A stretch of 64,000 bases of DNA from Lachnospiraceae bacterium (GTDB taxonomy: Bacteria; Bacillota; Clostridia; Lachnospirales; Lachnospiraceae): positions 37,031-101,030 of the forward strand of contig JAILJC010000180.1 in the NCBI GenBank assembly GCA_024694965.1, read 5' to 3'. Below the pieces are notes generated by a model. It was not told the origin of the DNA. It did no database searches and saw only the letters and a program-made list of their open reading frames with translations. Position numbers and translations under genes: made by a program. Positions 20,803 to 63,928 of this stretch are shown here, piece after piece. Every line of letters begins with the position of its first letter. The stretch's first letter is position 1.

Positions 20803-20837
20803 TAACAAGGGGTAAATTGATTAAAGAGGGGAAAAAC

Positions 20838-32782: not shown

Positions 32783-33904
32783 ATGAAGAAAATGGAGATT
32801 ATGAGGAAGTTAGGTAAGGTTATGACAGGTATTGGAGCTATAGCGCTCGCAGGAATGTTTTTTGTAGTTCCCGTTAAGGCGGATGCGATTTCGGACGGAA
32901 TGGCCGATTACGCAAAGGGCCTTGCTTATCTTCAGCAGATCAAGGCAAATACGGAAGCGGCAGCAGCAGCTCAGGATGCAGCAGCGGCAGCAGATATTGC
33001 AAGGGGTCAGGCTTATCTTGATTCCATTTATGCAAGTACGGCGGCAGCAGCGGCAGCAAGGGATGCACAGGCGCTTGACGGACTTGTAAAGGGTCAGGCA
33101 TATCTCCAGTCAATAGATGAAGCAACAGCTAAGGCAGCAGCAGCAAGGGATGCAAAGGCACTTGACGGACTTGTAAAGGGCCAGGCATACCTCCAGTCAA
33201 TAAATGAAGCAACAGCTAAGGCAGCAGCGGCAAGGGATGCACAGGCACTTGACGGACTTACAAAGGGTGCAGCTTACCTTCAGTCGATTAATGCGGCAAC
33301 AGCTAAGGCAGCAGCAGCAAGGGATGCAGAGATCGTTAAGTCGGCTGAGAGAGAGATCGCTTATCTCCAGTCTGTAAATCCTGCACTTATTCCGCCTACA
33401 GTTGCAAGCCTTGAGAAGGAGTTTGCATGGCTTAACAGCATCAACGAGTCAACTGTTAAGGCATGGACCGCAAGGGATGCTCAGGCAGCAGCCGGTGGTG
33501 CAGCAGGTCTTGCATATCTTAACAGCATCAATGCTTCGACCGTAGCAGCATGGACGGCAAGGGATGCTCAGGCAGCAGCCGGCGGTGCAGCAGGTCTTGC
33601 ATACCTCAACAGCATCAATGCTTCGACCGTAGCAGCATGGACGGCAAGGGATGCACAGGCGATCGCAAGCGGTCAGGCAGGACTTGCATACCTTAACGGT
33701 ATCAATGCTGCAACCGTAGCAGCATGGAACGCAAGGAATGCTCAGGCAGCAGCCGGTGGAGCAGCAGGAATGGCTTACTTAAACGGTATCAACGTTGCAA
33801 CAGTGGCAGGACAGCAGTACATTAAGGCTCAGGCACTAAGCGGAGCAGCAAGGGGGCTTGCTTACCTCCACTCGATACATGTAGCGAACGGACTCGCTGC
33901 ATAA
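32783..33904 (+). CDS. Secreted Ala-rich protein built of twelve 29-aa repeats (unknown family)
   Basis: RBS GGAAGGAG then ATG 32783. Signal peptide ...FFVVPVKADA. Twelve repeats centred on G-x-A-Y-L-x-S-I. No anchor motif. Confidence 0.7.
   Translation: MKKMEIMRKLGKVMTGIGAIALAGMFFVVPVKADAISDGMADYAKGLAYLQQIKANTEAAAAAQDAAAAADIARGQAYLDSIYASTAAAAAARDAQALDGLVKGQAYLQSIDEATAKAAAARDAKALDGLVKGQAYLQSINEATAKAAAARDAQALDGLTKGAAYLQSINAATAKAAAARDAEIVKSAEREIAYLQSVNPALIPPTVASLEKEFAWLNSINESTVKAWTARDAQAAAGGAAGLAYLNSINASTVAAWTARDAQAAAGGAAGLAYLNSINASTVAAWTARDAQAIASGQAGLAYLNGINAATVAAWNARNAQAAAGGAAGMAYLNGINVATVAGQQYIKAQALSGAARGLAYLHSIHVANGLAA
33479..33652 (+). repeat. Two near-identical 87-bp tandem copies inside the repeat-protein gene
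   Basis: gctcaggcagcagccgg[t/c]ggtgcagcaggtcttgcata... appears twice with only a few substitutions. Confidence 0.85.
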
Positions 33905-42258: not shown

Positions 42259-43581
42259 ATGAAAAAACTTATGGTATTGATGGTGGCGGGGATTGTATGC
42301 ATGGGGTTAACTGCCTGCGAGGGTACGGAATTCGACCCTTCAGCGATAAGTGAGGTGTCGCGTCAGGTCGAAGAGGTTACCGCTTCCGTTGAGGAAATAA
42401 GTGAATATGTCGGTGAGATACAGTCATCGGTACAGGAAGGCATTGATGAGGCAAATGCCGTAATGGAATGGTACAAAACTGAAGCATGGGCAAATAATCC
42501 GTGGATTTCCACACCTGTTACCGAGGAAGAAGTTGAAGGTCTGATTGATGCGGGACAGAAGGAGATCAACGCATATATCGGAGAAAATGCGGTATATGAT
42601 ATCCTAAGCGCAAGCGATATCGAATTCTTCAATGAGTATTTTAATGACGGCCGTAATAACGGATTTTTGTTAAGCACATATGAGTGCCCCGAGGCATGCG
42701 ATGCTTCGCAGATATTTTCAAGGTATTCGGATGCCATAGAGGAAGTAACCGATGAAGATACTGAGGATGATTATGCAGGCAAGGTACCCGAGGAAGGAGT
42801 AAATGCAACCCTGCTCGGTAATCTTGGCATTGAAAACAGGGAGCTTAACACGCCTCTTAAGTTTAAGAAGGGTTCAAACGGCAGGTATCTGTTCCTTGAT
42901 GATGTAAAAGATACTGTTAAGCTTAATTGTGACGGTGGTTTTTATTACAATAATATATTTGTGATCATGATGCGTGCGGAAAACCAGGATACTCCGTTTG
43001 CGCTGACTGTCCTTACAAAAGATGATGACGGTTCCGTAAAGATTCAGATGAATTACTGGAGCGATGATATGGAAGAAGTACAGTGGGACGGTTCATTCCT
43101 GTATGATCTGTACGACATGATGCAGGATTCGGATATACAAAGGGTAATGAATATTCCTGGATTTACCGGTGATGTTTCTCTTGGGGCCGAAATAGCTGCC
43201 GATGCTATGACCGGCGGAAAGGGACTTGAAGAAGTAGCGAAGCTTGTATCGGATGCAAAGGATGAAGCTAAGACTTATGTACAGGAATTTGAAGGTTATG
43301 AGGTTTATTACAGTAACCTTGATCCCTCGGCTGTCGGCGAATATGTAGTATCACAGATAGATGTTTCTTCAGGCAATTTCAAGACCGCCGAAGGAGCAGG
43401 GATCGGAACAACGGTTGAACAGCTTAAGGAAATGTACGGCGATGGTGTTATAACAAGGCTGGCCGCCGGCAGGGAACAGATAATGTACACAAAGGGTAAA
43501 TATAACATGCTGTTCCTTATCGATAAAGCGGGCAAGGTTGAGGAAATGACATTATACATTAACGAGGAATTCAATAAGTAA
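42259..43581 (+). CDS. Hypothetical lipoprotein
   Basis: Signal peptide with lipobox GLTAC. 440-aa acidic protein. No recognised domain. Confidence 0.65.
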
Positions 43582-48086: not shown

Positions 48087-48159
<73 letters not shown>

Positions 48160-48188
48160 CTGGATTTCAAGGTTTAAGTAAAAAAGTT

Positions 48189-48228
48189 TCCCCCTGGGTT
48201 TTCCCCATATTAGGGGGATTCTTTTTTT
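48189..48228 (+). terminator. Terminator-like hairpin after tRNA-Thr
   Basis: TCCCCCT...AGGGGGA (or the inner CCCC-atatta-GGGG) followed by TTCTTTTTTT. Confidence 0.5.
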
Positions 48229-48268
48229 GTAAAAACATGTTAAAAAAGATGCGAAAGGGGGACACAGT

Positions 48269-48385
48269 ATGCGGGCAAAAGGAGAAGGATGTTTCTCGAA
48301 GATTAAAAAGAATGGAGTTGAGTATTGGCGTTTCGCTTCGGGCGTGCGAGGAAGGATGCTGCAGAATCATGACTCAACCGATTAA
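48269..48385 (+). pseudogene. Remnant of a tyrosine-integrase N-terminus (38 codons)
   Basis: Translates to MRAKGEGCFSKIKKNGVEYWRFASGVRGRMLQNHDSTD*. GEG-x-F/I..K..G.eYWR is the usual start of phage/ICE integrases (arm-binding domain). It lies about 110 nt past a tRNA 3' end and has no catalytic domain. Confidence 0.45.
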
Positions 48386-48643
48386 GCTTTCCTTTAAATA
48401 ATTAGAGATGTATTATGCGGTGATGGGATGCGGGGATTAAATTATGAAGCATCTTTTGTATGTGGAAGCCCCCCATGTCATAATAATATTTTCAGCAGGA
48501 TATATTTGAGCAGGGAATATTTTTGCAGGCGTTTTCTATAACAGATAGTTCACATCGGGGCGTTTTATGCGGTCTTGTTTGTTACTTTTTACAAAAATGT
48601 TACAACTATTTTTGTTATATAGTAACAAAATTTAAAATATCAG

Positions 48644-48672
48644 TTGAAATACATATAAATACATGTTATAGT
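48644..48672 (+). promoter_or_regulatory. Sigma-A promoter candidate for the essC-led cluster
   Basis: TTGAAA, a 17-nt spacer, then TATAGT. Lies about 100 nt upstream of ATG 48771 in an AT-rich spacer. Confidence 0.4.
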
Positions 48673-48770
48673 CATAATCGCGAGTTAAGGATTCATAGCT
48701 TATATTCGAATCAGATCATGTTATAAACGATTCGTATTAAACTCTATAGATATAGTTTTAAGGTAGTAAA

Positions 48771-51700
48771 ATGCATATAGTAATACAGGTATACAACTCT
48801 CATTCCTTAGAGGAGTTTGTATTTAAGGCTTACCCCCTGCCTGATGAACGGGCCACGGCACTTTTCAAGCTTCGCTCGGACATGTTTCGCCTGAAGGCGG
48901 ATCGTGTCATCTCTCTGATCATATCAAATAATGGGGTCGCCCTAAACGGGACTGACACCGAAGTGTATCATCAGTATCAGGATAAAAAAATCAAATGTGA
49001 AAACATCATATCAGATGATGCCGGGCTCGTTCTGGTGACAGGGGACAGGGAAGTACTTAAGATGGCGGTGTATTTTGCGTCCGATGAAGGGATGAGGTTC
49101 TACAAGGTTGGCGATAAGGATTTAATCACTGTCGGGAATTCTCCCAAAAGGACAGTCAGTCTGCTTGGCAACCAATATATCTCCGATCTGCAGTTGATGT
49201 TTAGGAAGGCTGATGCAGGCGGGATAATGAATGTAAGGTCCGAAACAGGATGCTATTTAAACGGGAGATATATCGGACCTATGAATACGGCAGAATTAAA
49301 ATACGGTGATGTGATAACAACAGGAGGCGTAAGGCTGTTATGGCTGGATGAATGTATCGGTTTTGAAGCCCTGTATATAGGACCTCCCTGTGTTGTAAGG
49401 CTTAAGGAATGTACCCGCTTACGAAAGGTAGATAGAAGCAGGGGAGATGACGGTTTCACACCCGGGGTGCGAAACCTGATAAGGACGGATAATCCTGTGA
49501 TAGAGCTGGATGCTCCGCCACCGGCACCGAATATCCGTCGCCAGCCTGCTTATCTGGCCGTCGGACCGTCGCTTACAATGGCAGTCCCGATGTGTCTGGG
49601 GTGCGGGATGTATATATATGCAGCTTCACGGGCGGGTACCGGAGGCTCAGCAATATATATGTATACGGGACTGGTAACGGCAATTGCATCCGCGATACTT
49701 GGTACGGTGTGGGCCGTTGCGAACTTAAGGCAGAGCAGGCGACAGGAGAAGGAAGATGAAAGGCAGCGGATAAGGACATATAAGGAGTACATAAACAGCT
49801 GTACAAGACGCATAGAAGATAAATACAGGTATAACAGGAATGCCCTAAAGAGGAACAGCCCCGGACTGGATGAGATTTTAAAAGGGAACCTGAACAGCTT
49901 TGTACTTAACAGGCGTTTAGACGATGAAGATCTTTACAGGTACAGGCTGGGCACGGGTAAGTGCAGGTTTGAAGTGGATATAAGGGTTCCGAAGGAAAAG
50001 TACATGCCGGTTCCTGATGAGCTTGCGTCGCTCCCGCTCAAACTCAAGCAAAAATACTTAAAGATAAGTGATGTACCCATATGTACGGATATTAAAGCCG
50101 ACAGGATCCAGGGTTTTATAGGAAGGAACGGACAGGGGCTTGAACAGCTGTTTCTTAACATTGCCCTTCAGATAGCGGCGACAACCGGCCCCGAGCTTAT
50201 AAGGATGGTATTTCTGTTTGGGGATAATGTGATACCTGAGGGTGCGGTAAGGATAATGAGGTGGCTTCCCCAGGCACAGGGAGATGACGGACACTATGTA
50301 TGCACGGATCGTGACAGGAACGATGAACTGCTGTGTTTTCTAGAAGGGATCATTAAGAATCATGAAAACATCGTACACAGATGGATAGTATTTACGGATG
50401 ATCATAAAAGGCTGCCGCCTTCATTGCTAAGCAGGGAGGATCTAAGCCTACTGGTATTTGCAAAAGAGTACAGGTCGCTGCCCGGTGAGTGCAGATGCAT
50501 TATACAGAATGATGCTTCATACAGAGGCATGCTGATGCCGGGAAGGGAAGAATTAAGAAGGGATATATGTTTTGATCACATTTCGCTTAAGGAAGCCGAA
50601 GGATATATAAGACGCATTGCCGGAGTATGCAGGTATGTAAAATCGGCAGTAAAACCGATACCCGCACTTGTGACTCTTCCGATGCTTTATGATACAGACA
50701 ATATAAGGCATAATGATATAGCGGCTTTCTGGCGGGATAACAACACAATAAACAGCATTAGGGCGCCTATCGGTATGGCAGGGGATCAAAGAGTGATATC
50801 CCTCGATCTGCATGAAAAGGCGCATGGACCTCACGGCCTGGTGGCCGGTATGACAGGGAGCGGAAAGAGTGAACTGCTGCAGACATTGATACTGTCTTTG
50901 GCGTTACGGTATCCGCCATGGGAGGTCGGATTTTTTCTTATCGATTACAAAGGAGGCGGCATGGCTTCAATGTTTGAAGGGCTGCCCCATCTTATAGGAA
51001 GCATATCAAATCTGTCCGGCAATATCACGGACAGGGCACTGCTGTCGATACGCAGTGAAAACGAACGCAGGCAGAGGCTGTTCCTTGATGCGGGTGTCAA
51101 CTCGATCAGGGACTACGGCAGGAAATTTCTTGACGGCACTGTAGCCATGCCGCTTCCCCACATTTTGATAATCATAGACGAGTTTGCCGAGCTTAAGCGC
51201 GAGCAGCCGGAATTTATGAAGGAACTCATAAGCGTTGCTCAGGTGGGAAGGAGCCTTGGAGTTCATCTGATCCTTGCAACTCAGAAACCCGCAGGCACGG
51301 TTGACGATAACATTTTTTCAAATTCCAGGTTCAGGATATGTTTAAGAGTTCAGGATAAGCAGGACAGCAATGACATGCTGCACAGACCTGATGCGGCTTA
51401 TATAAAAAACCCGGGAAGGGCATATTTCCAGGTGGGAAACGATGAACTGTTTGAGGAGTTCCAGTCGGGATACACTATGGAACCCTGTATGGTTGAAAGT
51501 GATACGGGAACATTATGTCTGCTTGACAGAAACGGACGCAGGATAAAGGTATCGGAAAACCACATTGAAAATGAAGAAGCGGATACACATTTTTCTATGT
51601 CCATGAAGGTTATCAGACGTTGTTATGAAGAAAGTGACCATGCCACGATACAGAAGCTCTGGCTTCCCGAGCTTGACACAAGGCTGGTGCTTAACGAAAC

Positions 51701-53171
51701 AGCTATCCGCATATCCGATGATGAGCCCGGAGTGATCATCGGAAGATATGACGATCCCGAAAACAGAGAGCAGGGCGATTACAGGATAGATCTTTTAAGG
51801 ACCGGGCACATGGCGGTATGCGGCAGTGCACAAAGCGGAAAGAGTACGTTACTGCAAACGCTGATAATGTCGTTGCTAAGTCACACGGTTAAGATAGACC
51901 CTGCCATCTATATAGTCGATTACAGCAACGGTATTCTTTCATGCTTTAGGGACAGTGTGCTCGTGGGTGCATACATAAATGAAGATACTCAAGACAGGCT
52001 TGGTAACCTGTTCTGTTTGATAAGGGAGATCATTGACAGGCGCCGCACACAGTGGGACGGTATAAGCTTTTCAAACCGCAGGGATCAGTACGCGATATCC
52101 GATAAGGCCATCATACTGGTGATCGACAATTACGGAGCGTTCAGGGAGAAAACGGATTGCATTTATGATGATGCGATGCAGGAATTTATAAAGTACGGCG
52201 AAACCTATGGTGTATTTGTCATACTTACCGGAAGCGCAATAGGAAGTTCGGATATACCGGTCCGACTTTTTGAAAACATCAGGACGGGAATATGCTTAAG
52301 GTTAAATGACAGGTACCAGTACAGTGAATGTCTGCGTCAGATACATTTACCTGTTATGCCGGCCGAAGCAGGCGGAAGGGGACTTGCATATATATCAGGG
52401 CGGATACTTGAGTTTCAGACATATCTTATACTTGCGGAAAATGACAGGCAGCGGAATGAACTTATAAAGAAGGAAGTCGGCTATATCAATGTGAATGATC
52501 GGACTGTGCCGGCAAAGAGAGTTCCGTTCATACCAAAGGAACCTTCGGTTGAGGATCTTGATGGGGCGATTAAAGACATAATCCTTAATAATGGGCAGCT
52601 TCCCATCGGGTATGATGCCGTAAGTGCAAGGCCGTTTATAATAGATCTTTCCGATACACCATGCCTAATGTTTGCCGGTGCATGCAAAAGCGGAAAGAGC
52701 AATGCCTTGAGGGTGATACGTCATTACGCAGAAAGAGCAGGGATAAAGGTAAAAGATACGGGCAGTATAAGGAGCATATACGAAGCATTCAGGGAGGAAC
52801 CCGATGTGCTCGTTATCTGTGACGGAATCGAATCGGTAATAGATGATTTCTACAAAAACGACAGGGATGAGGCAATTGAAAAGGAAATGACGGAGCTTAT
52901 CGGTAAAAAGGGACATTGTATGGTATTTACCGTTTCATCATCGGGACATGCAGGTGTGGCAGGGCGAAGGATTTATGAACAGATACGTGCCGTATGCATG
53001 GGAATATACCTGGGCGGAAGCATTGATAAGCAGAATGTGTTTGACTTTTCATATCTTCCTTACAGTTTGCAGTGCCGCGCGGGTGAAGCGGGTATGGGAA
53101 CGGTGTTAAGGCGTGGCAGGGCAGCATCTTGCAATGACGTAGTGATCCCGTATGCGGAGGAAGTTAAGTAA
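48771..53171 (+). CDS. essC: Type VII secretion FtsK/SpoIIIE-family ATPase, EssC/YukB-like
   Basis: 1466 aa. N-terminal FHA-like region of about 200 aa, two TM helices (about aa 260-320), then three P-loop modules: GMTGSGKSELLQT with Walker B IIIDEFAELK; GSAQSGKSTLLQT; GACKSGKSNALRV. Confidence 0.9.
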   Translation: MHIVIQVYNSHSLEEFVFKAYPLPDERATALFKLRSDMFRLKADRVISLIISNNGVALNGTDTEVYHQYQDKKIKCENIISDDAGLVLVTGDREVLKMAVYFASDEGMRFYKVGDKDLITVGNSPKRTVSLLGNQYISDLQLMFRKADAGGIMNVRSETGCYLNGRYIGPMNTAELKYGDVITTGGVRLLWLDECIGFEALYIGPPCVVRLKECTRLRKVDRSRGDDGFTPGVRNLIRTDNPVIELDAPPPAPNIRRQPAYLAVGPSLTMAVPMCLGCGMYIYAASRAGTGGSAIYMYTGLVTAIASAILGTVWAVANLRQSRRQEKEDERQRIRTYKEYINSCTRRIEDKYRYNRNALKRNSPGLDEILKGNLNSFVLNRRLDDEDLYRYRLGTGKCRFEVDIRVPKEKYMPVPDELASLPLKLKQKYLKISDVPICTDIKADRIQGFIGRNGQGLEQLFLNIALQIAATTGPELIRMVFLFGDNVIPEGAVRIMRWLPQAQGDDGHYVCTDRDRNDELLCFLEGIIKNHENIVHRWIVFTDDHKRLPPSLLSREDLSLLVFAKEYRSLPGECRCIIQNDASYRGMLMPGREELRRDICFDHISLKEAEGYIRRIAGVCRYVKSAVKPIPALVTLPMLYDTDNIRHNDIAAFWRDNNTINSIRAPIGMAGDQRVISLDLHEKAHGPHGLVAGMTGSGKSELLQTLILSLALRYPPWEVGFFLIDYKGGGMASMFEGLPHLIGSISNLSGNITDRALLSIRSENERRQRLFLDAGVNSIRDYGRKFLDGTVAMPLPHILIIIDEFAELKREQPEFMKELISVAQVGRSLGVHLILATQKPAGTVDDNIFSNSRFRICLRVQDKQDSNDMLHRPDAAYIKNPGRAYFQVGNDELFEEFQSGYTMEPCMVESDTGTLCLLDRNGRRIKVSENHIENEEADTHFSMSMKVIRRCYEESDHATIQKLWLPELDTRLVLNETAIRISDDEPGVIIGRYDDPENREQGDYRIDLLRTGHMAVCGSAQSGKSTLLQTLIMSLLSHTVKIDPAIYIVDYSNGILSCFRDSVLVGAYINEDTQDRLGNLFCLIREIIDRRRTQWDGISFSNRRDQYAISDKAIILVIDNYGAFREKTDCIYDDAMQEFIKYGETYGVFVILTGSAIGSSDIPVRLFENIRTGICLRLNDRYQYSECLRQIHLPVMPAEAGGRGLAYISGRILEFQTYLILAENDRQRNELIKKEVGYINVNDRTVPAKRVPFIPKEPSVEDLDGAIKDIILNNGQLPIGYDAVSARPFIIDLSDTPCLMFAGACKSGKSNALRVIRHYAERAGIKVKDTGSIRSIYEAFREEPDVLVICDGIESVIDDFYKNDRDEAIEKEMTELIGKKGHCMVFTVSSSGHAGVAGRRIYEQIRAVCMGIYLGGSIDKQNVFDFSYLPYSLQCRAGEAGMGTVLRRGRAASCNDVVIPYAEEVK

Positions 53172-53174
53172 AGC

Positions 53175-53468
53175 ATGATAAGGTTTGAGGTTTATGCTCT
53201 TTCGTGGGCAAAGACTTATGAGATCGAGGCCGGTGAAAATACAAAAGTAAGTGAACTATTATGTTTCATCTCGGGTTTGTGCGGTGAAACTGAAAGAGGT
53301 ATTCTTTTAAGCCTGTCCGGGAAGGGCATGCTGGATGAAAGCATAAGCCTTAAGGAGCAAGGGGTATTATCCGGAGATAAGCTTATGTATATATCGGCAG
53401 GGTATAGGAAAGGAGGTAAAGGTGAAGCCGTTAAGCGCGGTATATGTGCGGATGAAGGGGCTGCTTGA
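53175..53468 (+). CDS. Small ubiquitin-like (EsaB/YukD-like) protein
   Basis: About 80-aa core ending ...LKEQGVLSGDKLMYI, which resembles the EsaB/YukD beta-grasp C-terminus. Lies immediately after essC. Called from context plus weak similarity. Confidence 0.55.
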   Translation: MIRFEVYALSWAKTYEIEAGENTKVSELLCFISGLCGETERGILLSLSGKGMLDESISLKEQGVLSGDKLMYISAGYRKGGKGEAVKRGICADEGAA

Positions 53469-53721
53469 TGAACTGGGGGTTGTGTCGGAAAACCTGTACG
53501 GTAAAATTGCGGGACTTGAAGAAGCCATTTCAGGTCTGGGGATATCATGGGAGGGAACCGCTTATGAACAATACAGTATAAGGTTAAAGGATGATCTTAA
53601 TTTTATGAAAGCCAAGGCTTTGAACCTGAAGGTCATGTATCTTATGCTTAGCACCCTGCTTGCGGGGTATCAGAATACTGAAATTAAAGTAGGCAGTATT
53701 ATAGGAGGATTAAAAAAATGA
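53422..53721 (+). CDS. WXG100-family protein 1
   Basis: 99 aa, central W-x-G (ISWEGTAYEQY), helix-turn-helix length. GTG start 5 nt after AGGAGG; the alternative is ATG 53452. Confidence 0.7.
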   Translation: MKPLSAVYVRMKGLLDELGVVSENLYGKIAGLEEAISGLGISWEGTAYEQYSIRLKDDLNFMKAKALNLKVMYLMLSTLLAGYQNTEIKVGSIIGGLKK

Positions 53722-54017
53722 GTATTAAGGATGAGATCGATATCCAGTTTGGACGGGCAATGCAGCAGGCGGAAGAACTTGAGGAACTCTCGGGCATGAT
53801 CTGCAATATAGGGAGTGAAAAGTTAGATGGAGCACTGACCCTGCTGACCAAGTCTTGGAAGGGAGAAAACGCAGGAGAATTTACCGGCAAGGTAAATGTT
53901 ATAAGAAACAGGATGTACGGATGTGCGGAGGCGCTTAAGGAAACGTCGAAGCTTATAAAGCTGACGGCGGGGCGGATTTATGATGCCGAGATGGCGGCAA
54001 TAAGGATGATAAGTTAG
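53718..54017 (+). CDS. WXG100-family protein 2
   Basis: 99 aa, central W-x-G (KSWKGENAGEF), good RBS (TAGGAGGA). Confidence 0.72.
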   Translation: MSIKDEIDIQFGRAMQQAEELEELSGMICNIGSEKLDGALTLLTKSWKGENAGEFTGKVNVIRNRMYGCAEALKETSKLIKLTAGRIYDAEMAAIRMIS

Positions 54018-54037
54018 GAAGAAAAGGAGGATCAGAT

Positions 54038-54337
54038 ATGTCATTTTTTCAGGTTACAGCAGCGGAGCTAAGGAAAAAGGCCGACCAGTTAAAAGGTCTT
54101 AACTCAAGGTTTAAGGGATCGGTTGATTCAATGCAGGCGACAGAACAGTCGTTAAAATCAATGTGGGAGGGTGAAGCAAACGAGACATTCCATAAAACGT
54201 TTGTAAATGATAAGGGAAAAATGGACCAGTTTCACGCGGCAATAGACAGGTTTATAGAGGCACTTCTGATAATTGCGGCAAAGTATGAGGAAGCAGAGAA
54301 AAAGAACACTCAGACCGCAGCGGTAAGAAGCTGTTAA
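54038..54337 (+). CDS. WXG100-family protein 3 (EsxA-like)
   Basis: 99 aa. N-terminal FQVTAAELRKKA, W-x-G (SMWEGEANETF), C-terminal YEEAEKKN. RBS AAAGGAGGA. Confidence 0.85.
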   Translation: MSFFQVTAAELRKKADQLKGLNSRFKGSVDSMQATEQSLKSMWEGEANETFHKTFVNDKGKMDQFHAAIDRFIEALLIIAAKYEEAEKKNTQTAAVRSC

Positions 54338-54367
54338 TGCGGACATGAATAAACGGAAAGGAGAAGG

Positions 54368-54685
54368 ATGATGACAGGTTTGTTAAAGGTTACGCCGGAA
54401 AAACTGATCGCGGCGTCAAATGAATTCAGTACGGTTGGAAAAACAGTAAGGTCGCTTACACAGGAAATGAATGATATAGTTTCGTCTCTGAAATCGGTGT
54501 GGATGGGAGAAGCAGCCACCGGATACGGATCGAAGTTTGCCGAACTTTCAGATGATATAGAAAAGATAAACAGAATGATACAGGAACATGTGACAGATCT
54601 TAACAATATGGCAAGAGAGTACCAGACGGCGGAGGATACAAATACACAGCAGGCTGCAGCTCTCAAAACGGATATCGTTGCATAA
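54368..54685 (+). CDS. WXG100-family protein 4 (EsxA-like)
   Basis: 105 aa. N-terminal LKVTPEKLIAASNEF, W-x-G (SVWMGEAATGY), C-terminal YQTAEDTN. RBS AAAGGAGAAGG. Confidence 0.85.
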   Translation: MMTGLLKVTPEKLIAASNEFSTVGKTVRSLTQEMNDIVSSLKSVWMGEAATGYGSKFAELSDDIEKINRMIQEHVTDLNNMAREYQTAEDTNTQQAAALKTDIVA

Positions 54686-54696: not shown

Positions 54697-56043
54697 ATGG
54701 AAGTAGGATACAAGAATCTTATCCTTATAGACAATTCAATGTCTGTCGGTGATGCCAATTTCATGCTGTGCAGGGAAACGGCAAAATATATATGCGAAAA
54801 CGGAGGAACGCAGGATACTTTCAGGCTTGCCACTTTCGGTGAGGATATAGAATACTTAACCGATTATACATCCGACAATGTGCTCCTTACTGACAGCATA
54901 GATGATCTTCAGCTTACGGACAGAGACACGTTTATAACGGATAATCTGGTGAAGATTTTGCGTGAGTGGAAGGAGCAGGACGTTGCATGCAGGAATATAA
55001 TCCTGTTTACCGACGGTGAGGAATCGGAATCCGTGCTGCATGCGGATGAGGAATTGTATTATCTGTTAAGGGATTCGGAATATCCCGTTTATGTAGTGCA
55101 GAGTATTGAAAAAATAGGGATACCGGCAACAAAAAATCTTTCGGCTATAGCAACGATAAGCGGAGGCAGGCTGCTTCTTACAGAGTTTGAAGGCTCCGAT
55201 GCATCAAGTGAGATAACTTTGGGAAGTGCTATACTTTCCGCGATCGATATTTCGCGTGAAGCAAAGGAGGAAGAAATCCATGCGGCGGAAATCACCGATA
55301 GTAAAGAGGAAATCCATGAAGAGGCAGAAGCAGCAGAAGAGGCGGATGAACCGGTTTCGTCCGCGGAAAGCCTTATGATATACGGTGATAAAGGTATGGG
55401 TACAGATATGCACAGTGAAACGGTACCGGTAAACACTCCCGAAACGCATGCTTCTGTTAATACGCCCATCATAAAACACACTACGGAGCAACACTCCGGC
55501 ATCAGTCTGGGTGTTATATTCCCGATCCTGGGATTTGTGTTTGCACTTGCGTTTGCGATCATCATACGTCTTATCACATCAAGGAACAATGAAGACTCCC
55601 TAGGGAACAGCAGGTTAAAGGAGACGATCGAGGAGGAACTTAAGCGAGAAGCAATGATAGCGCTTGATGCCGAAGAATATGACTGCATGACAGTGAAACT
55701 TAATGATCCGGGAACGAATACAAGGCTGCTTTCCCAAAACGCAGGCAGCCATGATATAGTTCTGGAGGACTGTAATGATCCTACAAGGTTATTCAGGGCT
55801 TCAAGTGACAGTGCCCTGATCGTAGGGAGGTCGGCAGGCTTGTGCGATGTTGCGATAGACTATGATGATTCTATATCCGGAAGGCATTGCGAACTTTCGG
55901 TAAAGGATGGAAGCTGGTATGTCAGGGACCTTAATTCATCCAACGGTACCAGGGTGAACGGGCAGAAGGTATTCCAGGAATTGATGCTTAAGTGCGGAGA
56001 TATATTAATGCTCGGACAGTCATCCCTTCAGGTGAGGATATGA
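54697..56043 (+). CDS. vWA - single TM - FHA membrane protein
   Basis: N-terminal vWA with an intact MIDAS DxSxS (LIDNSMS) and ILFTDGEE. Acidic linker. TM helix ISLGVIFPILGFVFALAFAIIIRLI. C-terminal FHA (VGRSAG...SISGRHCEL...VRDLNSSNGTRVNGQKV). Confidence 0.85.
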   Translation: MEVGYKNLILIDNSMSVGDANFMLCRETAKYICENGGTQDTFRLATFGEDIEYLTDYTSDNVLLTDSIDDLQLTDRDTFITDNLVKILREWKEQDVACRNIILFTDGEESESVLHADEELYYLLRDSEYPVYVVQSIEKIGIPATKNLSAIATISGGRLLLTEFEGSDASSEITLGSAILSAIDISREAKEEEIHAAEITDSKEEIHEEAEAAEEADEPVSSAESLMIYGDKGMGTDMHSETVPVNTPETHASVNTPIIKHTTEQHSGISLGVIFPILGFVFALAFAIIIRLITSRNNEDSLGNSRLKETIEEELKREAMIALDAEEYDCMTVKLNDPGTNTRLLSQNAGSHDIVLEDCNDPTRLFRASSDSALIVGRSAGLCDVAIDYDDSISGRHCELSVKDGSWYVRDLNSSNGTRVNGQKVFQELMLKCGDILMLGQSSLQVRI

Positions 56044-57356
56044 GAGAATTAAGTGAGAAGGAGCTGCTGCTTCTATCCAATTATCTGTACATTGATAAAT
56101 GTACGGAATACGGGACAATAAATGAAATGCTTGACAGCTGCCGCGGCGCAGACGGAAGTATAGATGAAGGAAAGGTGGCTGCACTTGGTATAGGCGGATG
56201 TATGAGTGCCCAGGAGGGCTGCCGCATACTTAATGAAATGGATGCATGCGGAGCAGGACTCTGCAGCCTGAGTGTTGCAAGAAGTATAGATGCAGGTGGG
56301 ATACGCGCTATATGTTTTGAGTCACGCGATGGAGATGCTACGGTTGTATTCCGCGGGACGGGCGGAGATTACGAGCCATGGGTTGACAATGTACGGGGTG
56401 AATATCAAAGCGATACCAGAATGCAAAAGCTCGCGGATGATTTTATAAGATATGACTGCGGCGTATATGACAGTATCACCGTGTCCGGACACAGTAAGGG
56501 AGGTAATCTGGCCCAGTATGTTACGGTTCTTAACAATGACAGGGTTGACAGATGCATATCCTTTGACGGGCAGGGTTTCGGAAAGGGCTTTTTTGATTCT
56601 TACGCTAAGGACGTCGGACCGGCGAGCGCAAAGATAAAATCCATATGCGCACATAATGATTATGTAAACCTGCTTCTGGGAGCTATAGCCTGCGAGATAG
56701 TGTTTGTAAAAAACCGTCACAGCGATCCGGTGGGATGCCACAGTTCATTTGCGCTTTTTGACAGCTGTGAATTTGACAAAAGCGGAAACATAGTAAATCT
56801 GACAGAACAGAGTAAGCTTATGAAGGGAGCGAAATCCCTGACTTCATATCTTACGGGATACATGGATTCGCTTCCGGGAGAGGGCGGCATGCTATTAAGT
56901 GAATTGCTCGCAGCAAATGTTGCCGCAGTATTCAGCTCGGAACTTGGCGAAGAATATGAAAATGAAAGGAAATACAAAGCAGGACTTGACGTTAAGCGCT
57001 ATCTTGCTTCTTCGGCCGGATTTGACATAAAGGATCCGCTGCGCGATGTGAGCATAGTTACCGATGAATTATATATTGATCCGGCGGGGCTTAAGGAAGC
57101 GGCAAGCCTAATCTTAAATACAGGCAGGGAAATGGATGCTGCGGCACTTAAGCTTGCAGAGCTGCGACATAAAATTGATTATAAGGCTGCCGCTAAGCTT
57201 GCGGTTGACATAATACTTAGGAAGGCTGAAAACAAAATGACTGAATATGCGGCTATGACTGTATCGCGCGGTGAAGCATTAAGTGAGATAAGCCGGTTGT
57301 ATGAAGAGAGGGAAAAAGAGATCCTAAGCTGCATAGGATCGATCACGTTTGCCTAA
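56040..57356 (+). CDS. DUF2974 / Mbeg1-like alpha/beta hydrolase with a C-terminal WXG/LXG-like helical extension (candidate T7 substrate)
   Basis: ATG 56040 overlaps the previous stop (ATGA) and follows GGTGAGGA. Nucleophile elbow SGHSKGGNLAQY, and FDGQGF. The last roughly 97 aa (57063-57353) are helical and begin LYIDPAGLKEAAS, like the N-termini of the adjacent Esx proteins. Confidence 0.8.
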   Translation: MRELSEKELLLLSNYLYIDKCTEYGTINEMLDSCRGADGSIDEGKVAALGIGGCMSAQEGCRILNEMDACGAGLCSLSVARSIDAGGIRAICFESRDGDATVVFRGTGGDYEPWVDNVRGEYQSDTRMQKLADDFIRYDCGVYDSITVSGHSKGGNLAQYVTVLNNDRVDRCISFDGQGFGKGFFDSYAKDVGPASAKIKSICAHNDYVNLLLGAIACEIVFVKNRHSDPVGCHSSFALFDSCEFDKSGNIVNLTEQSKLMKGAKSLTSYLTGYMDSLPGEGGMLLSELLAANVAAVFSSELGEEYENERKYKAGLDVKRYLASSAGFDIKDPLRDVSIVTDELYIDPAGLKEAASLILNTGREMDAAALKLAELRHKIDYKAAAKLAVDIILRKAENKMTEYAAMTVSRGEALSEISRLYEEREKEILSCIGSITFA

Positions 57357-57886
57357 AGTGTATCGTGATCGTAACCGTGACTGTCAAGGAAGCGTTCAAA
57401 CATATTATCCCAGGCTTCATTAAGAGTGCGGTCTATGGAAAAGATATTAAGTGAAACGGCGGTGGTGCATGTAAGTGCACCGCCGTCATATTTTATATTT
57501 ACGTTTAGTGAGCTTATCTGTTCCGGAAGAACCGGGGAGTCTACCGAGTTAAGGAACTTTATAACGTTTTCCTGAGCAAGAGCGAGAGTGATCCTGAAAG
57601 AAAGAGGAGGCTTTTTTCCGCGGATATATGAATAGCAGTAGCCTTTGACAGATTCCCATCGGATCAGATTTTCACTGAAAATACGCCCGCTTTCTTTGGC
57701 TTTTTCCCTAAGCAGGTCCAGCTCATCTGCGGTATAGAAATCCTTATTGATATGACCGTCAATAGTGTAGGCATTGGAAGTGGAAATGATCGCTTCACTT
57801 AAAAGGAAGCTGTCAAAAACCGTTTCTTTTTCCGACAGAAGACCGGTCATGAAGATTGCGGCGTTGTTTATCTTAAAAAGCTTCAT
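57353..57886 (-). CDS. Hypothetical cytoplasmic protein (177 aa)
   Basis: Clean ORF and last gene of the minus-strand argG operon. Its stop overlaps the stop of the hydrolase gene. No recognised motif. Confidence 0.55.
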   Translation of the reverse strand: MKLFKINNAAIFMTGLLSEKETVFDSFLLSEAIISTSNAYTIDGHINKDFYTADELDLLREKAKESGRIFSENLIRWESVKGYCYSYIRGKKPPLSFRITLALAQENVIKFLNSVDSPVLPEQISSLNVNIKYDGGALTCTTAVSLNIFSIDRTLNEAWDNMFERFLDSHGYDHDTL

Positions 57887-60100: not shown

Positions 60101-63100
60101 TCAACGGCGTGTCAGGTAAAATGAACCGTTGCTTTTGATGATATTATAGCTGTCCTCATCATCAATGCTGAGTGCAAAGCCGTCCGTTGAAGCGGCCGGT
60201 GCCTTTAGCAGCTGGAATGCGGGCTTGGCCTGATTGAAAACGGGATCTGATGATTCAAACTGACCGGACCTTAAGAAGTTGATGCAGGTACCGTTGTCCA
60301 TAGTCAGAAGAGCAAGCTTTAAGCCGCCTTTGTCCGTAGCCTGAGTTATTTCACCGTTTATTGTGATCTTTGAAGCAACGCTTTTTACGAGGCCGTTGCT
60401 TCTTTTTATCTTGCAGGTGCCTCCAAGCTCGGCCGCCAGTTCATCCTGATGTACATTGCCGACATTGATCTTACCCTTGCAATAAAGACCCACATCTGAG
60501 ATCAATAAGTTTCCGATCCCGTTTATATCACCGTTGACTTCAAATTTATATCTGAAATCACTATCGGCAATGTGAGTTCCGGATGATAAAACCTCAAGCG
60601 TCGATGCTTTGGACGCTCCGTTTCCTTTAATAGATCCGATCCTGTATGTGCTGAAATCGACATTCTTCATAGTAAGATGCGAAGCGTTGGTTTTAAGGTT
60701 GATCCTGGTTTTTTTATCTGCCACTCCTTTAGTATTAATATAATCGGCAAGGATGACTCCATCAAGTGTAAGCGGGGAATTGAGCGCGATCGAGTTTTTG
60801 ACTTTAAGCACCGCTTTTTCATCGGTTTTTGAAGCTATGGTTATACCCGCTGCCTGTTTAGGAGTAACAAGGTTTGTTTTAAAGTCGGAAGCCGTATCTG
60901 AAGAAGGGTCTATGAGGATTGAATATTCTGTCTCATTAGAACACAGTAAAGCAATTTCGCCAAGAGCATTATTGACGGTATCGAAGCTGCCGAGAACCGT
61001 GAGATCTTCAGAATCGTTTTTAATGCAAAGGGTAACGGGGATGTCATCACCGGATGAGATGCCGAAGGTGTCTTTTGCCTTTTTGACAAATGCGCTGACA
61101 GTGATCCTGTCATCTTCGACAGCCGTTCTGGCGATCACAAAACAGCCGGCGGGTACCTTGGCGGCTGTTATGATCTTACTTTTCTTACTTGCCGCGGAAG
61201 TATAATCACCTTTTAAGAACTTGGGGGTGATACTTAAGGCAAAGCGATTTACGATGACCTCTCTTCCTGAACCGGAAACAGCCTTCACATTCGGACCACT
61301 GCATTTCATAGAGCCGCTTATTTTGCATTTGCCTTTTTTGTCACCGTAGGAAATAGAATTATACTCATTAAGAGAAGCTACATTTTTTAATGTAACATTT
61401 GCTGCGGCATTTATAGAGGCGGATTTAAGGCTTAAGAGGTTTGACACACTGATATTGCCGTTTGCGGATGTAATATCCGCATTGTCTGCCGTTATATTTC
61501 CTGCGTTTATGTTTCCGGCAACCGTCATGGGCATGCGCTCTTTTGTTCCCATAAGGATCAGGTGCGACCCGGCTTTACCGGAAATGGAGGCAAAGCTTCC
61601 TTTTGATGTTGTAAAGGGAGAGTCGGTAAACTCCACTGTATTGCCGCCGATCGTCAGCTTGGCGCCCGAAGAGTCAGATACCAGATTAATGTTCTGGAAA
61701 GAAGTATCGGTTGAGGGAGAAAGATCCCCGGTAAATCCGAAACTGTATCTGTCGGCGCCGGCACTTGCAAGGGTGATTTTTGCCGCTGTTTTCGGAAATA
61801 CAAGCTTTTCAGCCATATCAACGCTTTCAATAAGCTCAATCCTGTAGGAAGCGTTTTTGTCCTTTACAGTATTGTCAATGTAATTTACTGCTTCTGACCA
61901 TTTAATAAATGTGCTCACAGGTTCTTCGCCGTTGTAAAGGGCAAATGCGGGTTTTGCAAAGATGAGGCTGCTATCCACCTCGCAAAGATCCAGTGAGGTA
62001 TCAGCAGGATTCTTATTCGCTCCTGTAGAGACAATATCAAATACATCTTTAAACTGGGCATTTGCCAGTGTGCCGGAAGAGTCGGTCACTCTTTTTATAG
62101 TACCCGAGTTTACAGCTACAACATCGCCTGATTCAAAGTATCCTTTTCCCGAAGTTGCAAATTCAATTTTCGGAATGGGGGATTTAATGTCGTCGCTGTT
62201 TGCCCCAAATGCTGTAGTACCCTTTATCAAAAGCCTGCCGTTTCGCAGCAGACGGCCGCTGTTATCATAGGACTTGGAAATGATCACGGGATGATTTTTA
62301 CCTGTTTTATTAAGCAGATAGAAACTGCTGTTTTCAAGTGTGACCGTATTGTTGAGGTAGAGAGAATAATCAGCCTGTGCGTACGGGTCCATATTGTCAC
62401 CGTAATAAACGGGCAGCTTTTTAAATGTAGTATTGTCCAGGATCATGTCCTGGCAGGAGTAGACATTAAATAGAAGGTGATCCAAATCAGTTACACCGGT
62501 AAAGACTACATTTTTTACCTCTTTTATATAGTCTAATGACAGGTTACCGGAATATGTAAAAACTTTATCACTGTATCCTACGCAAACGGTGCCGTTTGAT
62601 ATTTTGGATGCAGATAAGAAGCAGATGTATTTACACTTTAAATTATGGCCGTTTAAGTCGATGCTCACCCTCTCGGGATGCGATAAACTGATGTCATCGG
62701 CATCTCCGCCGAGGATACAGTCGCTGTTAAACTTTATTGTCCAGTCGGCATCTGATACGAGGCTCTTTGAGTCTATGTATTGGCATGCAGCAACAAGACT
62801 GTCAAATTCGTCTTCGTTACCATCTGAGCCGATGACAGATATCTTACCTGCTTTAAGATCAGTTCCGCCTTTGACCTTGTCAAAATAATTTTTGATAAAG
62901 CGCGGACTCTTATACATATCCTGTTCTTCGGAACGTTTGAAACTTTTGTTGTCCGAAAGATACCTTCCGGTGGAGCAGTCTATGAAGTACCAGTAACCGT
63001 CTCCTCCGTCAACAATGTTGTATGCATGAGCAGCGGCATCCGTGCCCATGATGGCTTTGCTTGCAACTCCGAGTTCTCGCATAAGCCTTGAAAACAGATG

Positions 63101-63928
63101 TGCATAAGCTTCGCAGGTGCCGTTACCTTTAATGAGGGCATGATAGGCGGTATGGTAGAGGGGATAGGTGCGGTCCGATCCGCCGCTGCCGTTCACGGTT
63201 CCTTTTACATGCTTTCTTACATAATCATAAACCGCTTTGATCTTTTCGGTGTTTGTTCCGTTTTTAACGCCGGCAAAGGTCGTGTTCATAAGCTCACTTA
63301 CCTTTGCGTCCATTTCGTCCTCCTCGGAGCGGGTTGTTATCACCGGAAGATATATTTCATACACTTCGTAGGTAGTTCCATCGTAATCATAATAATCTAT
63401 GCAGCTTGGATACTCATATTCAAACACACGTTGTATCCTGTTTCGAAACTGGTGGAACATATAGTCGCCTTCGTCCGGCTTCATTCCCGGACGCTCGGCT
63501 TCAAAATCATAAACATCCATTAGATCGATGCAGCCGCTGATCAGGCCCTTTTTCACATAGATCCTGTCATAAACATATCCGTCAGTGTCGTAATTCATGC
63601 GATTGGTTACGTCGGGATAAAGCGCCATATTGTTGACCCTTCTTCTTACGATATCGCGCACGGCTTCATATGCTTCGTATTGAGTATTGCAGTAATACTG
63701 CGAAGCGGCCTGTACCCCGGCATCGTTAAGCCCGGTATCATCTAAGTGAAAACTGTCATTTATGTCCGCCGGAACAAAAGCTGTATCGGGTAACGTTATT
63801 ATATCCGGTTCCGATGAGATATCGCTGATCTCGGTGAGAACATCGATACTCTCGGCGGCAGCACATGTGAATGTGGAAATGAGAATCATGGAAACGGTTA
63901 GAGTGAGAGTCAGAAATCTTTTAAGCAT
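60101..63928 (-). CDS. Large secreted protein with an N-terminal transglutaminase-like cysteine protease core and a long beta-rich C-terminal region
   Basis: Signal peptide MLKRFLTLTLTVSMILISTFTCAAA. Transglutaminase-core triad pattern: GNGTCEAYAHLF (Cys), AAHAYNIV (His), WYFIDCS (Asp). The remaining roughly 900 aa are Gly/Ser/Asn/Thr-rich. Confidence 0.7.
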   Translation of the reverse strand: MLKRFLTLTLTVSMILISTFTCAAAESIDVLTEISDISSEPDIITLPDTAFVPADINDSFHLDDTGLNDAGVQAASQYYCNTQYEAYEAVRDIVRRRVNNMALYPDVTNRMNYDTDGYVYDRIYVKKGLISGCIDLMDVYDFEAERPGMKPDEGDYMFHQFRNRIQRVFEYEYPSCIDYYDYDGTTYEVYEIYLPVITTRSEEDEMDAKVSELMNTTFAGVKNGTNTEKIKAVYDYVRKHVKGTVNGSGGSDRTYPLYHTAYHALIKGNGTCEAYAHLFSRLMRELGVASKAIMGTDAAAHAYNIVDGGDGYWYFIDCSTGRYLSDNKSFKRSEEQDMYKSPRFIKNYFDKVKGGTDLKAGKISVIGSDGNEDEFDSLVAACQYIDSKSLVSDADWTIKFNSDCILGGDADDISLSHPERVSIDLNGHNLKCKYICFLSASKISNGTVCVGYSDKVFTYSGNLSLDYIKEVKNVVFTGVTDLDHLLFNVYSCQDMILDNTTFKKLPVYYGDNMDPYAQADYSLYLNNTVTLENSSFYLLNKTGKNHPVIISKSYDNSGRLLRNGRLLIKGTTAFGANSDDIKSPIPKIEFATSGKGYFESGDVVAVNSGTIKRVTDSSGTLANAQFKDVFDIVSTGANKNPADTSLDLCEVDSSLIFAKPAFALYNGEEPVSTFIKWSEAVNYIDNTVKDKNASYRIELIESVDMAEKLVFPKTAAKITLASAGADRYSFGFTGDLSPSTDTSFQNINLVSDSSGAKLTIGGNTVEFTDSPFTTSKGSFASISGKAGSHLILMGTKERMPMTVAGNINAGNITADNADITSANGNISVSNLLSLKSASINAAANVTLKNVASLNEYNSISYGDKKGKCKISGSMKCSGPNVKAVSGSGREVIVNRFALSITPKFLKGDYTSAASKKSKIITAAKVPAGCFVIARTAVEDDRITVSAFVKKAKDTFGISSGDDIPVTLCIKNDSEDLTVLGSFDTVNNALGEIALLCSNETEYSILIDPSSDTASDFKTNLVTPKQAAGITIASKTDEKAVLKVKNSIALNSPLTLDGVILADYINTKGVADKKTRINLKTNASHLTMKNVDFSTYRIGSIKGNGASKASTLEVLSSGTHIADSDFRYKFEVNGDINGIGNLLISDVGLYCKGKINVGNVHQDELAAELGGTCKIKRSNGLVKSVASKITINGEITQATDKGGLKLALLTMDNGTCINFLRSGQFESSDPVFNQAKPAFQLLKAPAASTDGFALSIDDEDSYNIIKSNGSFYLTRR

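Follow-up and report, generated by a model that had tools for sequence, protein, structure and literature searches.

A window of 64,000 nucleotides from a Lachnospiraceae bacterium (GenBank assembly GCA_024694965.1, contig JAILJC010000180.1, positions 37,031 to 101,030) contains a compact type VII secretion system (T7SS) operon, in which the gene at 54697-56043 encodes a membrane protein combining a VWA domain, one transmembrane (TM) helix and an FHA domain. The protein, referred to here as VWA-TM-FHA, is best explained as a phospho-dependent transmembrane adaptor or regulator and the only accessory membrane subunit of this unclassified operon, a reading that we put at slightly below 60%. By the sequence of its EssC ATPase the operon is nearest to T7SSb, yet it lacks EssA, EssB and EsaA. 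VWA-TM-FHA is a new type of accessory component for the T7SS, and the operon probably represents a new type or subtype in the T7SSa-j catalogue of gene clusters. In the literature searched, no description was found of a VWA-TM-FHA component of a T7SS, of a "T7SSk" or of a comparable T7SS in Lachnospiraceae.

The open reading frame (ORF) starts 11 nt after the end of the preceding WXG100 gene, with a ribosome-binding site (RBS, GAGG) 8 nt 5' of the start codon. Its stop codon TGA (56041-56043) overlaps the ATG of the downstream hydrolase gene (56040-56042), and the ATGA at 56040-56043 that had been proposed in the preliminary description of this stretch is indeed present. The RBS of the hydrolase, GGTGAGGA, sits 5' of its ATG at this same junction. 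About 47 full-length homologues with 29-75% identity share the VWA-TM-FHA architecture, which, as a matter of comparative sequence evidence, means that the ORF is not a chance one. Pfam matched VWA at residues 9-156 (E 4.9e-9; 37.1 bits against a cut-off of 23.8) and VWA_2 at residues 8-108 (E 9e-7), and in the C-terminal part FHA (PF00498) at residues 375-440 (E 1.2e-17; 64.5 bits against a cut-off of 20.7) and Yop-YscD_cpl at residues 372-446 (E 2.5e-12). The AlphaFold2 model, built from an alignment of 19 homologues, gave a confident VWA fold from residue 1 to about 200 (predicted local distance difference test, pLDDT, of about 90), a juxtamembrane helix at 304-326 and a second disordered stretch at 326-349 (pLDDT below 50). 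In Foldseek the N-terminal domain matched only VWA folds, among them ITIH1, Rpn10, BatB and ArnB (8s05), with E values from 3e-11 to 1e-8. The metal-ion-dependent adhesion site (MIDAS) is formed by D12-N-S14-M-S16, T81 and T105-D106-G107, and its residues are well kept among the 47 family members (D12 in 44, S14 in 44, S16 in 45, T81 in 45 and D106 in 46). Two TM helices, as in TsfJ, were considered and ruled out, every member having a single 26-residue helix and a single hydropathy peak. The preliminary description had recognised a vWA domain with a complete MIDAS start and TDG, an acidic linker, one TM helix and an FHA domain with its G-R, S-x-x-H and N-G residues, and all these elements are confirmed by the ORF, Pfam, AlphaFold2 and conservation.

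Indirect hints of phospho-dependence come from the FHA domain. Its phosphothreonine (pThr) contact residues G377-R378, S394-x-x-H397 and N416-G417-T418 are found in 47/47 homologues, and by profile and residue set the domain is of the canonical predicted pThr-binding type. FHA domains that no longer read pThr usually lose the contact residues. While these residues are invariant in VWA-TM-FHA, they drift in the FHA domain of EssC from the same operon: the membrane-proximal FHA of the window EssC has lost the canonical residues (GN for GR, and SDLQ with Q for H), and the positions vary across the clade. Ten residues before the first FHA strand lies the motif T342-R-[LIV]-L345, in which both the Thr and L345 are present in all 47 clade members. 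The Thr is kept in 133 of 146 diverse representatives of the wider family, where acidic residues precede it (-4 to -1) and hydrophobic ones follow (+2/+3), and in the alignments the conservation of the motif equals that of the pThr-binding residues. FHA domains commonly bind pT-x-x-(I/L/V), Hanks kinases of bacteria prefer a target Thr with acidic residues before it and hydrophobic ones after it, and proteins of the GarA/OdhI type bind their own phosphorylated tail. We infer that T342 is a phospho-acceptor, which would be read by the FHA domain in cis or in trans.

The same domain could also work without phosphorylation. VWA-TM-FHA would then be a constitutive structural scaffold that replaces EssB/EsaA and binds EssC or YukD through its FHA domain. 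Such a role would suit a gene that is translationally coupled in a stoichiometric-looking operon, and neither the operon nor the window yielded a Hanks kinase or PP2C motif (regular-expression scan of the 64 kb and Pfam on part of the ORFs, not exhaustive). It would also have a parallel in T7SSb, where the contact between FHA and pseudokinase is described as phospho-independent (PMC11217815) and YukD-EssC-EssB forms the building block (bioRxiv 10.1101/2025.01.24.634720). A scaffold of this kind would however not be expected to keep R378, S394, H397, N416 and T418 at 47/47 while the EssC FHA drifts, nor to have a conserved Thr motif and relatives with kinases and PP2C in cis, and we regard it as unlikely. 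The phospho-regulation suggested in the preliminary description finds indirect support: the invariant pThr residues, the Thr motif and the kinases and PP2C genes encoded beside relatives speak for it, whereas the scan of the window gave no kinase or phosphatase motif.

The second half of the interpretation concerns topology. The window protein has no N-terminal hydrophobic segment, and since 54697 is the first start codon past an in-frame stop, no signal peptide is hidden upstream. A mis-called start was likewise ruled out, the upstream gene ending 11 nt before and all 47 clade members starting alike. The lack of a signal peptide and the resulting puzzle of an outside domain without an export signal, both pointed out in the preliminary description, are therefore real: a signal peptide and an N-terminal beta domain are absent from 47/47 clade members. 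In the wider family, 129 of the 145 best representatives scored positive for an N-terminal signal-like hydrophobic segment; among the other 16, several fail only because of the threshold or a truncated start. The window clade stands alone among the best 150 in having lost both the signal peptide and the N-terminal beta domain, and it also lacks the Ig-like domain that follows the VWA domain in exported relatives. From the sequences compared, the joint loss of signal peptide and beta domain looks like a single evolutionary event.

Orthologues at the same operon position in two other loci (L026 and L003; comparison loci are cited by such numbers) have a clear, cleavable-looking signal peptide before the VWA domain, and relatives with such a peptide leave no doubt about the placement, with VWA on the extracytoplasmic side and FHA in the cytoplasm. 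All 47 clade members keep one strongly hydrophobic helix, with about six Lys/Arg residues (K/R) within 15 residues after it against about two before it, and this bias holds in 47/47 sequences. The whole part N-terminal to the helix carries a net charge of -38 in the window protein and of -27 to -48 in the clade, and per 100 residues the clade ranges from -10 to -17, compared with -2 to -10 in the signal-bearing relatives. Negative charge favours N-tail translocation. The charge bias, the signal-bearing homologues and the invariant pThr pocket, which would be unexpected in an extracellular FHA domain, together make it likely that the VWA domain is outside and the FHA domain inside, as the preliminary description had argued for the FHA side. 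One candidate route is through Sec/YidC, which would translocate the N-tail with the help of its negative charge while the TM helix serves as a reverse signal-anchor.

Two other placements of the protein have to be weighed here. In the first, the VWA domain would stay in the cytoplasm like TscE, the soluble cytoplasmic vWA protein of T7SSc (PMC11217815), and the hydrophobic helix, inverted or non-spanning, would be a mere tether holding the whole protein at the cytoplasmic face. The absence of a signal peptide in 47/47 members, the accompanying loss of the beta and Ig-like domains and the unusual nature of a signal-less post-translational export of a folded 190-aa alpha/beta domain all agree with such an arrangement. 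The two ends of a single 26-residue helix, however, must face different sides of the membrane, the K/R bias and homology place the FHA domain inside, and an extracellular FHA domain is unlikely to keep a pThr pocket. Moreover, the N-terminal part has grown more acidic, a charge that favours N-tail translocation, and we consider the cytoplasmic placement quite unlikely.

In the second, the protein would be cargo, a metal-dependent surface adhesin exported by the co-encoded T7SS and anchored by its TM helix, with the FHA domain as a docking handle for EssC. Its gene lies between the WXG100 genes and that of a predicted secreted lipase, it has no Sec signal though homologues place the VWA domain outside, and T7SSs probably move their substrates in a folded or partly folded state. 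Against this, the N-terminus has neither a helical targeting domain of the WXG/LXG type nor a YxxxD/E motif and forms a beta strand at residues 6-11, the signal-bearing orthologues in the same operon plainly use Sec, and we know of no T7SS substrate that stays anchored in the membrane of its own producer; the cargo explanation is thus highly improbable. A related idea, that the acidic 270-residue N-terminal part of the clade, folded VWA domain included, is moved by the co-encoded T7SS or another non-Sec route, is very unlikely as well. If it were true, the T7SS would install its own transmembrane sensor, which would be the first case of T7SS-dependent topogenesis of a membrane protein.

VWA-TM-FHA is the seventh of eight genes in a tightly packed operon on the + strand, in the order essC, yukD-like, four WXG100 paralogues, VWA-TM-FHA and lipase. 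No Pfam or NCBIfam match to EssA, EssB (YukC) or EsaA (YueB) was obtained among the eight operon products or among the other window ORFs scanned, and EssC and VWA-TM-FHA are therefore the only membrane proteins of the cassette. The gene thus occupies the place where EssB/EsaA would be expected, as originally noted, and is the sole accessory membrane protein. A species-level genome scan gave 21 Lachnospiraceae loci in metagenome-assembled genomes (MAGs), mostly from the rumen. The homologue follows essC and WXG100 genes in 19/19 loci with upstream sequence and precedes the lipase gene in 20/20 loci with downstream sequence. Gene order is kept at identities of 30-75% for VWA-TM-FHA and 35-69% for EssC, compared with 85-98% for argG. 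All related genomes examined contain the cassette, and its chromosomal contexts number at least four. Besides the rumen site it lies with AzlCD downstream in L003 and L056, in L039 and L050 from metagenomes, and between a two-component system and SpoVAC/LacI in L054/L055, the last located starting from the lipase. In L005 the order is a phage-type integrase, EssC, YukD, four small genes, VWA-TM-FHA, a 929-aa Hanks kinase, a 1172-aa protein and PP2C. Outside the Bacillota, T7SS-like clusters of Chloroflexota type (L053 10001-21331 and L035 9369-20947, one of them from an Anaerolineales MAG) begin with a signal-bearing VWA-Ig-TM-FHA protein of 755-771 aa, followed by WXG100 genes, a Hanks kinase, an EccC-like ATPase and a double-FHA protein, and the association with a T7SS in Chloroflexota is independent. 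The preliminary description had staked its interpretation on whether this architecture is ever found next to essC and WXG100 genes in other genomes. The rumen loci, the additional contexts and Chloroflexota all have it there, and as far as sequence analysis reaches the interpretation is supported.

The gene belongs to a much wider family. A profile search of 1.84 billion representatives returned 2,488 of them at E <= 1e-30, each standing for one cluster at 50% identity, and nearly all of the best 150 representatives are full-length proteins of 500-550 aa with the layout signal peptide, small beta domain, VWA, Ig-like domain, TM helix, linker and FHA. This SP-beta domain-VWA-TM-FHA family is defined here, and no published name was found for it. 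The window protein matches the family profile over the full-length VWA, TM and FHA parts (alignments A2/A3) and shares the Thr motif. In human-gut metagenomes (L041 3032-21182, and also L040 and L042-L048), the locus starts with a prepilin peptidase, TadE-like, DUF5702 and DUF6382-FHA genes, followed by a signal-bearing VWA-TM-FHA, a beta-propeller kinase, a 1274-aa LysM protein and a TPR kinase; in loci of this type the 10 kb upstream contain no essC. In Heliobacterium (L004) the family member is located in a cluster of kinase, PP2C and FHA genes, and in L033 and L057 beside a giant protein and PP2C. What its members have in common is a setting of Ser/Thr kinases and phosphatases that signal at the cell envelope, with the T7SS as one recurrent client. 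In Clostridia and Chloroflexota, a large and so far uncharacterised family thus seems to connect signalling by Ser/Thr kinases with machines of the envelope.

From these loci a further explanation arises, in which VWA-TM-FHA is a general adaptor of Ser/Thr-kinase signalling that merely neighbours the T7SS, the linkage being inherited gene order. Kinase/PP2C clusters such as L004 and L040-L048 have no T7SS genes within 10 kb on either side, L033 and L057 have none on contigs under 10 kb, and most rumen loci sit at one chromosomal site. Such a bystander is nevertheless hard to reconcile with the 11-nt and overlapping junctions inside the operon, with a gene order held down to 30% identity, with the retention of the gene where the cassette sits in other contexts and with the independent association in Chloroflexota, and of the explanations considered it is the least probable.

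Several points weigh against a phospho-dependent transmembrane regulator of the T7SS. The family is not exclusive to the T7SS, as the Heliobacterium, human-gut, L033 and L057 loci illustrate. Most of the 19 rumen loci have common flanks (rlmB-sigH on one side and DUF5721-DUF1294-argG on the other), so they are largely one inherited locus, and the number of independent contexts comes to about five. Because the regular-expression scan of the window, with Pfam on part of the ORFs, gave no kinase or PP2C motif, any phosphorylation must come from an unlinked enzyme. The T342 segment could instead belong to the FHA fold itself, as an extension at its N-terminal end that AlphaFold2 missed because the alignment was shallow. 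In the signal-less clade, a 270-residue N-terminal part with a folded VWA domain would have to reach the outside without a signal peptide. Finally, the carriers of the cassette are uncultured MAGs, and all evidence is comparative or predicted.

The likeliest mechanism for the phospho-dependent regulator can be sketched as follows. A Hanks-type Ser/Thr kinase, encoded elsewhere in the genomes of the clade and in cis in relatives, would phosphorylate T342 of the protein itself or a site in EssC. The FHA domain would read this mark, either on T342 of a neighbouring copy or on EssC, and would scaffold or release the EssC/YukD unit, thereby assembling or activating the EssC machine; this step would be broadly comparable to EssB-EssC in T7SSb and to TagH/Fha1-PpkA in the type VI secretion system (T6SS). 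On the outside, the MIDAS of the VWA domain may bind an acidic side chain of a protein ligand, which could be a component of a target cell or the cell wall, or secreted cargo. Ligand binding might then bias the secretion of WXG100 proteins and lipase to the right moment or place. The effect on secretion, the partner of the FHA domain and the topology of the signal-less form belong to the predicted part of this scheme, which is built upon the observed domain content, residue conservation, operon structure, synteny, homology to signal-bearing proteins and kinase/PP2C linkage in relatives.

This operon bears on when T7SSs of the Bacillota type fire and on which membrane parts they need beyond EssC. 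It is nearly minimal: besides EssC, YukD and the WXG100 proteins it encodes a single accessory membrane protein and a single probable cargo. It offers a concrete model for transmembrane control of a T7SS that can be mutated at the MIDAS, at T342 and in the FHA pocket, and it may allow the machine to answer signals across the membrane. The minimal membrane complement and the fusion from outside to inside are notable for the T7SS field and directly testable. The carriers are abundant rumen Lachnospiraceae, in which a system secreting a lipase may matter for competition within the community.

The theme of FHA, vWA and kinase in T7SS clusters has already been published, and the fused membrane form is a different implementation of it. 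T7SSc to T7SSj were defined by Garrett, Higginson and Palmer (2024; PMC11217815). Recurrent members of these clusters are kinases, PPM phosphatases and FHA proteins, together with a single soluble vWA protein (TscE), and no component described there is a VWA-TM-FHA fusion. The closest analogues are TseJ, TsfJ and TsjJ (collectively TsxJ; DUF6382 plus FHA) of T7SSe, T7SSf and T7SSj, which are likewise non-ATPase components with a C-terminal FHA domain, TsfJ being membrane-anchored too (PMC11217815). As with TsxJ, the VWA-TM-FHA gene of L005 stands amid genes for a kinase, a giant secreted protein and PP2C, and the human-gut loci provide a link, with a DUF6382-FHA gene directly before the VWA-TM-FHA gene. 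Unlike TsxJ, the protein has an N-terminal VWA domain and no Pfam match to DUF6382; it also differs from TsfJ, with two helices and both domains cytoplasmic, and from the soluble TseJ in having one TM helix, which would put its domains on opposite sides. The operon contains no DUF6382 protein, phosphatase, kinase (TsxD/TsxI) or AAA+ TsfV, and so falls outside T7SSe, T7SSf and T7SSj. T7SSc (vWA protein TscE, kinase TscD and PPM phosphatase TscF; PMC11217815) similarly ties a vWA component to Ser/Thr phospho-signalling. TscE, however, has neither TM helix nor FHA domain and is predicted to be cytoplasmic, the EssC of the window has an FHA domain unlike that of T7SSc, and TscD, TscF and the EspG-like TscG are absent from the operon. 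T7SSg and T7SSh differ by the FHA domains in the present EssC and by TsgL and TshM, neither of which is present.

In T7SSb, EssB/YukC is similar in being a single-pass protein encoded with EssC, with an extracellular domain and a cytoplasmic domain of phospho-signalling type. EssB, a pseudokinase that binds the FHA of EssC, shows no kinship to VWA-TM-FHA in sequence or fold, and its N-terminus is cytoplasmic, so that the orientation is reversed here. The accessory protein of the present operon carries the FHA reader, apparently phospho-competent, rather than the kinase fold. With regard to the T7SSb gene set as a whole, WXG100 and YukD-like genes are present, and those for EssA, EssB and EsaA are missing from the operon. 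In Actinomycetales, a pathway of MoxR, vWA, kinase and FHA proteins was proposed to gate Esx (bioRxiv 2026, PMC13622651). These Esr pathways resemble the present case in having a surface sensor, a vWA protein, a kinase/phosphatase pair and an FHA output proposed to switch Esx/EccC, and T342 lies in a disordered region like T152 of EsrG1, a Thr-phosphorylated FHA protein (PMC13622651). They are, in contrast, multi-protein pathways with a MoxR ATPase and beta-propeller sensors, whereas the present operon has no MoxR and carries vWA and FHA in one membrane-spanning chain. In the T6SS, TagH/Fha1 with PpkA/PppA provides the precedent of an FHA domain that reads kinase-made pThr and triggers assembly of the machine on envelope signals. 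Fha1 is soluble and has no VWA domain, and the match of the window protein to TIGR03354 (35.3 bits against a cut-off of 120.25) covers the FHA core only. ArnA (FHA) and ArnB (vWA) of Sulfolobus form a phosphorylation-dependent pair of the same two domain types, and ArnB (8s05) is a structural neighbour of the VWA domain; they are two soluble cytoplasmic regulators of archaellum expression, with no membrane fusion and no link to secretion.

The product of the last gene of the operon has a core like that of class 3 lipases with a GHSKG elbow. In the AlphaFold2 model (pLDDT 85.7) it ends in a C-terminal helix-turn-helix hairpin (helices 348-378 and 383-437), which bears a YxxxE motif with Y421 and E425 nearly invariant. 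A "reverse" arrangement was described for the T7SS lipase TslA (PMC10730906) and noted in other T7SS variants (PMC11217815). The N-terminal lipase fold, the C-terminal hairpin and four WXG-like genes nearby all agree with this arrangement, which makes the lipase the probable cargo of the T7SS, a reverse-arranged substrate whose export is predicted from these features. The WXG100-like paralogues 1 and 2 may act as Lap-like partners for the hairpin. The best Foldseek match was a T6SS lipase effector (9cys_A). No sequence match to solved structures, TslA included, was detected, leaving the fold-level match to the T6SS effector as the only informative one. Compared with TslA of S. aureus, the lipase belongs to Pfam Mbeg1-like/DUF2974 and has no detectable sequence match to it, a clear YxxxE sits on the lipase itself, and no lipoprotein immunity gene adjoins the lipase gene in the window. 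In L054 (9292-10008; also in L055), a 238-aa lipoprotein with an LLGGC lipobox is encoded between VWA-TM-FHA and lipase and is a candidate immunity protein. It was rejected as a conserved immunity gene, being unrelated to the gene, also of 238 aa, that L002 has in the corresponding position, and having no counterpart in the window.

The features of the cassette are collected in Table 1.

Table 1. Location of the VWA-TM-FHA gene, its domains and the neighbouring features in the window.
Feature	Coordinates	Strand	Basis
VWA-TM-FHA single-pass membrane protein, 448 aa	54697..56043	+	ORF, Pfam, homologues, AlphaFold2, Foldseek, conservation
VWA domain, aa 1-198, complete MIDAS, long terminal helix 171-208	54697..55290	+	Pfam; AlphaFold2 pLDDT ~90; Foldseek
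Acidic disordered stalk, aa 201-270, weakly conserved	55297..55506	+	AlphaFold2 pLDDT 30-40; mean majority fraction 0.31
Single TM helix, aa 271-296, with K/R-rich flank	55507..55584	+	AlphaFold2 helix; hydropathy 2.77; K/R counts in 47 homologues
T342-R-L-L345 motif, candidate phospho-acceptor / pT-x-x-L FHA ligand	55720..55731	+	Conservation; AlphaFold2 disordered linker
FHA domain, aa 350-448, R378/S394/H397/N416/T418	55744..56040	+	Pfam; AlphaFold2 beta-sandwich pLDDT 80-90; conservation
EssC-type T7SS ATPase, 1466 aa; FHA-like N-terminal modules, two TM helices, FtsK/SpoIIIE domains	48771..53171	+	
YukD/EsaB-like ubiquitin-fold protein, 97 aa	53175..53468	+	Weak PF08817 match (E 0.051)
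WXG100-like paralogue 1 (SWEG; GYQNTE near C-terminus)	53452..53721	+	HHalign to WXG3, 95.8% probability; syntenic
WXG100-like paralogue 2 (SWKG)	53718..54017	+	Pfam WXG100 E 0.0026; TIGR03930 7e-5; HHalign to paralogue 1, 86%
WXG100 protein 3 (MWEG; KYEEAE = YxxxE)	54038..54337	+	Pfam 2.2e-12; TIGR03930 53.1 bits, above the 44.85 cut-off
WXG100 protein 4 (VWMG; EYQTAE = YxxxE)	54368..54685	+	Pfam 8.4e-14; TIGR03930 55.5 bits, above the cut-off
Mbeg1-like/DUF2974 lipase, 438 aa, translationally coupled	56040..57356	+	Pfam PF11187; AlphaFold2; Foldseek; conservation
tRNA-Thr (GGU), left cassette edge	48087..48160	+	ARAGORN; Rfam tRNA 72.7 bits
Terminator-like hairpin after tRNA-Thr	48196-48221		Terminator scan
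Promoter-like TTGAAA-17-TATAGT, extended TG, ~100 nt 5' of essC; candidate operon promoter	48644..48672	+	Consensus scan alone

The EssC protein has Pfam matches to FtsK_SpoIIIE (3.9e-48) and to FHA at residues 120-184. Against NCBIfam TIGR03928 it scores 758.1 bits, just below the equivalog cut-off of 778.4, with an alignment restricted to residues 240-1321. The cassette family has two designs of the EssC N-terminus. The window type (48771-49600) has two FHA-like modules with degenerate pThr residues, and that of a divergent sub-clade (L019, L021, L022 and L023) has one short FHA domain with canonical GR...S-x-x-H. The syntenic yukD-like genes in L003, L005, L054 and L056 do match YukD (PF08817). 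The four WXG100 paralogues (53452-54685) each have a W-x-G turn, and the curated TIGR03930 cut-off is passed by the last two alone. The start of paralogue 1 is the ATG at 53452; the mechanical ORF list has the GTG at 53422.

The cassette is bounded on one side by the tRNA-Thr gene and the terminator-like hairpin (48087-48221) and on the other by convergent housekeeping genes. A horizontal island was ruled out by composition, the GC content of the cassette being the same as that of its flanks, and the adjacent tRNA-Thr is only suggestive. The number of promoter-like sites in the region is not above the shuffled expectation, and apart from the tRNA the Rfam scan gave no regulatory RNA in the essC leader. 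Two listed ORFs (48093-48401 and 48523-48726) overlap the tRNA or the essC leader and are almost certainly spurious. Elsewhere in the window, three ORFs on the + strand at 42259-43581, 32687-33904 and 20817-22319 (440, 405 and 500 aa) have no Pfam match and lie amid housekeeping genes. Just 3' of the cassette in the rumen loci is a DUF5721 gene (57353-57886, - strand) whose product has no signal peptide, and such a gene is also found about 7 kb 3' of the relocated cassette in L054 (18122-18655, - strand). Further downstream, a 1275-aa ORF (60101-63928, - strand) has a transglutaminase-core domain as its sole match, and a related large transglutaminase/Big_2 protein is encoded 3' of the cassette in L056.

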